Program-made: the position numbers and the translations under genes
In this document: positions 24,670 to 25,877 of the stretch, piece by piece
How the letters are laid out: each line of letters begins with the position of its first letter
Position numbering within the stretch: the first letter of the stretch is position 1
Notes under the pieces: model-generated
Seen by the model: the letters and a program-made list of their open reading frames with translations, nothing else
Databases searched by the model: none
What the model was told of the DNA's origin: nothing
DNA from: a virus
Lineage: Duplodnaviria > Heunggongvirae > Uroviricota > Caudoviricetes
Reading direction: 5' to 3' (one strand)
Length of the DNA stretch: 64,000 bases
IMG/VR virus record: IMGVR_UViG_2519899835_000003

Positions 24670-25009
24670 AGAAATTCCTTTGACTGCTTCAGGCTTAAAA
24701 ATCAGGGGATTTATGATGGAATTCGCTAAAATCGCGATCGGTATCACTGCAACAGAGTGTTGCTATGATATTCTGGGCAAGACGTAACAACTCACTAATT
24801 GTTATCAAACTTCTTTCTTCTGGTCGGGGAGCATGTTGCTCCCCTTTTTATTGCATCATTACGGCAGCCACTGCACAGAGCGTTACCACTGCACCCAGCC
24901 ACACAAAAATCTCCTGCTGTGTAGTGCTTCTTTACGTATTTCAGATTTGCCTGTTTCATGACAATTTATCAATTAGCATTAGCTAAACATTTTATACATA
25001 GTATACGAT

Positions 25010-25243
25010 TTACATTATTTGAGAGCAGGTTGTGCTGTCAAATGCTCCAGCTCCAACCCAACGCCAGTTGTAGTGATGCCCTGCATGATACAATTTATAC
25101 TTCCCGCTTTTCTTAATCCCATAAATTGGCATTATAGTTTCTTCCCCACCTAAATATGCTTTACCATGGCAAAGCGGAGTTGGCAAAGATTTGCAACCAG
25201 ATAATAATATCAATACAGCTAAAACACATTTGTACATTATCAA
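25010..25243 (-). CDS. Small lipoprotein, candidate superinfection-exclusion protein
   Basis: Lipobox LLSGC after a hydrophobic N-terminus; about 60-aa mature protein; AT-rich; sits between tail fibre genes. Confidence 0.6.
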   Translation of the reverse strand: MIMYKCVLAVLILLSGCKSLPTPLCHGKAYLGGEETIMPIYGIKKSGKYKLYHAGHHYNWRWVGAGAFDSTTCSQIM

Positions 25244-25249
25244 CTCCTT

Positions 25250-25795
25250 CTAAACCTTATAAACAGATATAGTTTTTCCGTTTTGATTAAAGAGCCAGTT
25301 TTTAGAAACTATTGCACTATAATGCCGAGTATTGTTTGCAAATGATAATGGTGTGAATGAGATATTGGTTCCATCAAATGATAGAGTAAAGTTTTGATTA
25401 GGCCCGTTCGTTAAGCCCAGATACATCTTGGTAGAGTCTTGCGTTTGAGAAAGATGCGTAATTGAACAACCTAACAACGAACCATTTATTGAACCAGCCG
25501 GATTTTGTGTTTGCACACGGCTGGAAACGGCAGAGCCAGCACCTGTCGTTGTTGAGTTATTAGAATACCCTCCATAGTTATTGTTTACAGGAACAATTTG
25601 TATATTTGTTGCCTGAACTAAAACAACAAAATTTGAACGACCTACAGTGATAGAAAAGTCCTGTACACTTTTCCCAACCATTTGCGACATATAAAACGGT
25701 GTACTTAGCTTAAGTTTGGCACCTGCCGATTTCATTGACCTTTCACCAGTTACACTAACGGCAGAGGAGCCAACCCATCCGGAAGCAACCCCCAT
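25250..25795 (-). CDS. Hypothetical S/T/N/G-rich protein
   Basis: ATG with AGGAGG 7 nt upstream; AT-rich. Confidence 0.5.
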   Translation of the reverse strand: MGVASGWVGSSAVSVTGERSMKSAGAKLKLSTPFYMSQMVGKSVQDFSITVGRSNFVVLVQATNIQIVPVNNNYGGYSNNSTTTGAGSAVSSRVQTQNPAGSINGSLLGCSITHLSQTQDSTKMYLGLTNGPNQNFTLSFDGTNISFTPLSFANNTRHYSAIVSKNWLFNQNGKTISVYKV

Positions 25796-25877
25796 TTAAC
25801 ATCCTCCTGTCATTCGGACGATAACACCAACCATCTTCTGCCTCAGACTAATGGTTCTCTGTTCTCTGATTGTTTTA

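Follow-up and report, generated by a model that had tools for sequence, protein, structure and literature searches.

In the window (the whole 64,000-nucleotide stretch of DNA analyzed), the locus described here lies in the tail region of a lambdoid prophage that is short-tailed and of the 933W/Stx-phage type (Sepvirinae). A search of the window with Stx1A and Stx2A peptides gave no match; because this is a weak check, we keep the label to "Stx-phage-type" only. All genes of the tail region are on the minus strand, and the order of transcription is N4-gp56-type capsid and virion genes, an 881-aa fiber gene, a 181-aa gene, a lipoprotein gene, a 54-aa ORF, a 567-aa virion protein gene, a 422-aa tail-tip protein gene, genes of 92 and 205 aa, and lom. 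The fiber (25878–28523, minus strand) is a collagen-like side tail fiber with the Pfam domains CarboxypepD_reg, Collagen, Phage_fiber_2, and Peptidase_S74. Its last ∼118 residues (about 25878–26230) are the Peptidase_S74 intramolecular (self-cleaving) chaperone. Over its C-terminal 105 to 118 residues the fiber is 58 to 68% identical to the fibers of SSU5, an SSU5-like element, and a 225-kb element, and this S74 end is absent from the 933W fiber L0121. The collagen-like portion contains a repeat array (26311–27209) with a 108-bp period in 7.3 copies and nested periods of 54 and 216 bp. Fiber length is 881 aa here, 635 aa in O104:H4 2011C-3493, 673 aa in Stx2 phage 86, and 697 aa in prophage L111; given these differing lengths in otherwise near-identical prophages and the tandem array, we conclude that fiber length varies by repeat number.

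The gene following the fiber (25250–25795, minus strand) had been described in the first-pass annotation as encoding a 181-aa S/T/N/G-rich protein with a strong ribosome-binding site. The ORF and its composition are as described, with AGGAGG 8 nt before the ATG, and the protein, which had been left anonymous, can be identified as a fiber-tip adhesin that combines a Gp38-type N-terminal attachment domain with a beta-sandwich C-terminal domain. Residues 1 to 40 match the Gp38 N-terminal domain PF21721 (70.6 bits versus a cut-off of 25, E 1e-19), and the full length matches PHROG 1121, "tail fiber adhesin"; with HMM E-values of 1e-19 and 6e-66, the ORF is not a product of chance. Among named phages, the closest relative is in the Salmonella phage-plasmid SSU5, where it is called "receptor-recognising tail fiber adhesin" (50% identity). 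The glycine-rich/hypervariable GP38 receptor domain PF05268 gave neither a sequence match nor a fold match in the 181-aa protein. Residues 100 to 181 are confidently modeled as a beta-sandwich, for which fold searches returned only generic beta-sandwich matches or other short Gp38_N proteins, and for this reason we assign the adhesin no receptor from its fold. Its homologs are few and fall into 15 clusters, and a scan of one genome per species found none. In the spacer between the fiber and adhesin genes, there is an indel of one 7-nt repeat unit (25854–25860).

Twelve nucleotides downstream of the adhesin gene lies the lipoprotein gene, cor (25010–25237, minus strand). The annotation had it encode a 77-aa lipoprotein with the lipobox LLSGC. 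A minus-strand ORF is indeed present and reads 77 aa if started from TTG 25243; ATG 25237, with AAGGAG 6 nt upstream, is the likely start and gives a 75-aa precursor, in line with the 228 nt annotated in RefSeq. The signal peptide MYKCVLAVLILLSGC has one basic residue, a hydrophobic core, and a lipobox that ends, as had been noted, in L-S-G-C, and it leaves a mature protein of 61 aa from Cys15. The residue at +2 after the lipobox cysteine (MYKCVLAVLILLSGC followed by K) is a lysine; with no aspartate at +2, the putative lipoprotein would be sorted to the outer membrane.

The precursor matches the NCBIfam equivalog NF047972 (Cor) over residues 5 to 74 of 77 (71.1 bits versus a cut-off of 31, E 5.9e-20) and PHROG 1119, "Cor superinfection exclusion protein" (E 2.1e-33), and HMM E-values of 6e-20 and 2e-33 mean that this ORF, too, is no chance reading frame. 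Its alignment with Cor of N15, HK022, ES18, and T1 extends over the full length, and the lipid-anchor cysteine and two other cysteines are invariant, as all three also are among 54 sequences. The two others, C23 and C71, are invariant in alignments of both 6 and 54 sequences; they correspond to the intramolecular disulfide said to be common to Llp and Cor (PMC9586334). Identity is 43 to 44% to N15 and HK022 Cor and 32% to T1 Cor, compared with 36% between N15 and T1 Cor. The near-invariant family core motif R-A-G-Y-P-F reads H-A-G-H-H-Y here; the changes P55 to H and F56 to Y fall at positions where conservation among 54 family members is 90% or more. The ORF is intact, with a consensus ribosome-binding site and every family-invariant residue kept. 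As a homolog search with the single Cor sequence returned only two near-identical proteins, the wider set was gathered by profile search.

An AlphaFold2 model built from the Cor alignment has a pLDDT of 82, and of about 91 over the mature domain, and is closest to T5 Llp of the FhuA:Llp crystal structure, so that Cor is predicted to have an Llp-like fold. Searched with phmmer up to E 10, the full set of PDB sequences yielded no Llp chain, and no meaningful PDB sequence match was found for either Cor or the adhesin. The first-pass reading of a Cor- or Llp-like lipoprotein was thus borne out by the NF047972 and PHROG 1119 matches, the invariant cysteines, the Llp-like model, and an adhesin gene 12 nt away. 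By profile and alignment, the protein is a true member of the Cor family and not a mere analog. We consider it probable that it is a working Cor-type exclusion lipoprotein.

A scan for promoters and terminators found four promoter-like sites versus 4.6 expected from shuffled sequence, that is, no enrichment, and independent transcription of cor as a moron was dropped as a candidate here. With no promoter or spacer of its own, cor is probably cotranscribed with the late tail genes. A near-consensus sigma-70 pattern (TTGACA-16 nt-AATAAT, 11/12; 25014–25041, minus strand) lies in the last cor codons and points toward the downstream tail genes. Between cor and the next tail gene is the 54-aa ORF (24795–24959, minus strand), whose status is doubtful: it lacks a Shine-Dalgarno sequence, it matches nothing but the function-unknown PHROG 32751, and the sequence of its 3′ third is intergenic in 933W. 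Relative to its counterpart in Stx2 phage 86 it carries an 18-nt in-frame insertion duplicating a C-S-G-N-A-L-like segment. It contains VAGC and was considered as a second lipoprotein; we rejected this because no hydrophobic signal peptide precedes the VAGC. Within this ORF, a strong hairpin, GGGGAGCA-TGT-TGCTCCCC and then TTTTTATT (24826–24852), reads as a plus-strand terminator, opposite to all genes. It sits exactly at the 933W mosaic junction (24859) and is kept in 933W, where it is intergenic. For the 567-aa virion protein gene (23044–24747, minus strand), the ORF finder places the start at GTG 24747, and the RefSeq homolog starts 26 codons later (541 aa). Rfam found no RNA families on either strand of 24300–26300, and short plus-strand ORFs are present in the island.

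An AT-rich island of 1.1 kb between the tail genes had been reported. The low GC holds (0.399 for 24750–25870 versus 0.502 for the window, with only 1.6% of 1121-bp windows equally low or lower), and its extent had been drawn too narrowly: the island begins at 24860 and takes in the final ∼320 bases of the fiber gene (25878–26200, GC 0.37). A second low-GC stretch, at about 37700–39000 of the window, is equally extreme (GC 0.387–0.393 over 1.1 kb). The start of low GC coincides with the break in homology to 933W at 24859/24860. Identity to 933W is 96.9% up to 24859; homology is then lost and comes back only within the collagen repeats, and the unrelated genes L0122 and L0123 occupy the position in 933W. 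Judged by sequence comparison, the AT-rich island is an exchanged cassette that is absent from 933W-type Stx phages; this host-recognition cassette (24860–26300, GC 0.37–0.40) comprises the fiber C-terminus with its S74 chaperone, the adhesin, and cor. Of 169 phage records with a match to the conserved query edge, only 10 contain the whole module; among 5426 complete E. coli genomes, 358 match this edge and 53 hold the whole module. Positions 24700–25900 are found at 100% identity in 23 complete E. coli genome records among the matches listed, O104:H4 outbreak strains included, and at 97% identity in Stx2 phage 86, Shigella phage POCJ13, and several Stx-converting phages. The flanks differ by ∼2% from O104:H4 2011C-3493.

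The small genes of 92 and 205 aa (20863–21764, minus strand), which follow the 422-aa tail-tip gene, are distant homologs of the pair that precedes cor in T1, N15, HK022, ES18, and SSU5 (pairwise blastp against the T1, HK022, ES18, and SSU5 counterparts, E 1e-5 to 1e-7). In T1, HK022, N15, ES18, and phi80, all FhuA-dependent, a "cor cassette" made up of a ∼100-aa protein, a ∼215-aa protein, and Cor stands directly after the J tail-tip gene (PMC13164509), and we saw this layout directly in phage records as well; the BASEL study treats the cassette as a receptor-binding locus with its exclusion partner (PMC8594841). In the present locus type cor instead follows the adhesin by 12 to 15 nt, and the small-gene pair lies 3.2 kb beyond cor, past two large tail genes. 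The 205-aa protein is 100% identical to L0127 of 933W, which has no cor. As the pair is homologous to that of the cor cassette, all 933W-type Stx phages carry a cor-less "cor cassette." In Stx phage 24B, the proteins at that position, which we equate with the 92- and 205-aa pair by position alone, have been modeled as BamA receptor binders (2025, PMC12309495). Because the 205-aa protein is identical in cor-less 933W, the tail-tip receptor module (BamA by the literature) is not matched by this Cor. We conclude that the tail-tip receptor module is the same as in cor-less Stx phages and that cor arrived with the side-fiber tip.

A survey of 91 cor loci in viral and genome collections puts this arrangement in context. 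About 65 consist of two small genes followed ∼110 nt on by cor, and in eleven ES18-like loci cor stands alone between the tail-chaperone and tape-measure genes. An adhesin gene with cor 10 to 15 nt downstream occurs in prophages of the Stx-86 type, plasmid-like elements of ∼225 kb, and a contig of Salmonella Enteritidis (10-nt spacing). The ∼225-kb elements, related to an Enterobacter ludwigii plasmid, carry an S74-ended fiber, a 69%-identical adhesin, and, 10 nt downstream, a Cor homolog (54–60% identical); SSU5-like phage-plasmids have the order fiber, adhesin, two small genes, cor. The adhesin-linked Cor proteins group together in a single clade whose sister is the N15/HK022/ES18 clade, while T1 falls outside; at the position of AGYPF they read AGHHY here and AGHQY, ADHHY, AGSVF, or AGSIF in relatives. 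This Cor subclade always travels with the adhesin, in four unrelated phage backbones. In the 225-kb and SSU5-like elements (L114 7001–8306 and L119 4538–7353), two different Gp38_N adhesin genes flank cor, the second being either a 168-aa short form or a 274-aa protein with a true GP38 domain, which suggests alternative fiber tips around one exclusion gene.

Loss of cor has also occurred. The Sepvirinae prophages L111, L112, and L113 carry a 76%-identical adhesin and only a frameshifted 5′ remnant of cor (L111 7547–7752), which encodes the signal peptide and first mature residues, LSGCQTLPEPVC, before a T-run shifts the frame. The remnant is fused to sequence upstream of the next tail gene, in a region that the extra N-terminal stretch of the 567-aa gene overlaps. 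Since these related prophages kept the adhesin and lost cor, cor is dispensable for the virion, and the adhesin does not need it. The same remnants would be expected if cor were a hitch-hiker in the course of being lost, with no role in this phage. We regard this as very improbable for the locus analyzed, where the ORF is intact, the ribosome-binding site is consensus, all family-invariant residues are kept, and the sequence is conserved at 100% in the 23 E. coli records.

As the receptor on which this Cor would act, FhuA is favored by precedent and parsimony. The change from AGYPF to AGHHY means that FhuA specificity is not assured; given this altered motif, the adhesin linkage, and the BamA-type tail tip, Cor may instead have a non-FhuA target or a purely defensive role. 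If the role were pure defense, Cor would be a free-riding moron that blocks FhuA, shields the host from unrelated FhuA-dependent phages such as T1, T5, and phi80, and is unconnected with the phage's own adsorption, while the adhesin binds, for instance, LPS core. FhuA is the target of all characterized Cor proteins, the eleven ES18-like cor loci are far from any receptor-binding gene, and HK022 cor is annotated as a moron. In addition, SSU5, the closest sequenced phage with both adhesin and cor, is reported in a review to use LPS core as its receptor, and related Stx phages are reported to use BamA (PMC12309495). LPS core could hardly be masked by a periplasmic lipoprotein, so the LPS-core dependence of SSU5 counts against a simple model in which the adhesin binds the target of Cor, though a protein coreceptor may take part as well. 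We nonetheless consider the free-riding moron rather unlikely: cor shows no sign of a promoter or terminator of its own and follows the adhesin gene after a gap of only 12 nt, four unrelated backbones share the adhesin–cor pair, the Cor proteins of which make up a clade of their own, and this recurrence resembles the coselected pairs of receptor binder and blocker described for BASEL (PMC8594841).

Alternatively, the adhesin-linked subclade may have been retargeted from FhuA to BamA, the tail-tip receptor of Stx phages, or to whatever the adhesin binds, which could be a porin or a TonB-dependent transporter other than FhuA. The subclade is separate from the Cor proteins of FhuA type, P55 to H and F56 to Y alter conserved family positions, and Llp- or Cor-like lipoproteins are known or proposed for BtuB and LptD. 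The SSU5 protein just before its cor is, moreover, nearer to the 205-aa protein of Stx phages (BamA-type, E 1e-7) than to the FhuA-type protein (E 0.007). We hold retargeting to be possible and still the less probable outcome, as both the sister clade and the T1 outgroup target FhuA and this Cor is closer to N15 and HK022 Cor (43–44%) than T1 Cor is (36%). On a tentative extension, the adhesin-linked Cor proteins might be a separate specificity class, partnered with the side-fiber adhesin rather than the central tail tip and blocking BamA or the receptor of the adhesin instead of FhuA; the side fiber of O104:H4-type Stx phages would then truly bind a protein receptor and have an exclusion partner of its own. 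We give this extension only a modest chance.

The account that we prefer, and hold to be likely, is of a horizontally exchanged cassette of fiber tip, adhesin, and cor, with Cor blocking an outer membrane receptor and being coproduced late. The cassette would supply the C-terminal chaperone end of the fiber, an adhesin docked on the fiber tip via its Gp38-type N-terminal domain, and cor. Cor would be produced as a 75-aa precursor and act from the periplasmic leaflet of the outer membrane, where its small, disulfide-braced beta domain would, by analogy with T5 Llp and with T1 and phi80 Cor, bind the periplasmic face of the receptor and force the surface loops of the receptor into a shape that phage receptor-binding proteins cannot grip. 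Made late, Cor would keep progeny and superinfecting phages from being wasted on the infected cell and its debris. The receptor would most likely be that of the neighboring adhesin, with FhuA the default candidate by family precedent. Counting against this account are the about 65 of 91 surveyed loci in which cor comes after the J-tip small-protein pair (here 3.2 kb away) and not after an adhesin, the 205-aa tail-tip protein shared with cor-less 933W, the altered motif, the LPS-core receptor reported for SSU5, and the related prophages that kept the adhesin and lost cor.

The identification of Cor is correct but not new, because public records already name it: RefSeq genomes carry "cor: phage exclusion lipoprotein Cor," the Stx2 phage 86 record has "Cor like protein, O86 specific region1 (not found in O157)," and pharokka-annotated phages name the gene Cor. 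Our literature search found no experimental paper on Cor in Stx-type phages or on this protein. What we add is modest, namely, the boundaries of the cassette, the neighboring gene as a fiber-tip adhesin, the Llp-like fold, and the adhesin-linked Cor subclade. The gene lies within the tail module that sets the Stx2a phage of the 2011 O104:H4 outbreak lineage, Stx2 phage 86, and Shigella phage POCJ13 apart from the 933W type. If Cor works, cells carrying or producing the phage would lose a surface receptor, which would affect readsorption and spread of toxin phages, resistance of the strain to FhuA-dependent therapeutic phages, and, possibly, uptake of iron siderophores. Through the adhesin–cor pairing, the receptor of the Stx-phage side fiber could also be sought directly by experiment.

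Comparison with known systems places both proteins. The adhesin is like Gp38 of T2/T6-type Straboviridae in its Gp38_N fiber-attachment domain, in a gene directly after the fiber gene, and in being a monomer-sized tip adhesin; it differs in having a plain beta-sandwich instead of the glycine-rich/hypervariable PF05268 domain, and the fiber ahead of it, unlike gp37, ends in a self-cleaving S74 chaperone. Cor shares with the proteins of the temperate, FhuA-dependent phages phi80, N15, HK022, mEp167, and ES18 a curated HMM family, 38 to 44% identity, length, lipobox, two further cysteines, and a place among tail and host-range genes. Their cor genes, however, stand ∼110 nt after J and two small proteins and encode AGYPF, whereas the gene here stands 12 nt after a side-fiber adhesin and encodes AGHHY, and the phage that carries it is an Stx-type podovirus whose tail-tip receptor is reported to be BamA. 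Cor of T1, other Drexlerviridae, and Dhillonvirus is of one family with this protein (32% identity for T1), and in these virulent phages, as probably here, it is produced in lytic growth and not from a repressed prophage. T1 cor differs in lying beside the FhuA-type small-protein pair on the opposite strand; the association of T1 Cor with FhuA has been addressed by genetic tests (PMC13164509). T5 Llp, the lytic conversion lipoprotein (PDB 8A60, 7QJF), binds periplasmic FhuA and closes its surface loops (PMC12685063, PMC9586334); it has no detectable sequence similarity to this Cor (14% identity in the structural alignment), and its partner is pb5 on the central fiber and not a side-fiber adhesin. 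Rtp45 of phage Rtp acts likewise on LptD (PMC12685063), which is not a TonB-dependent transporter. As a ∼6-kDa periplasmic lipoprotein that is encoded beside a receptor-binder gene and distorts the surface loops of its receptor, Rtp45 resembles the Cor proposed here in its logic.
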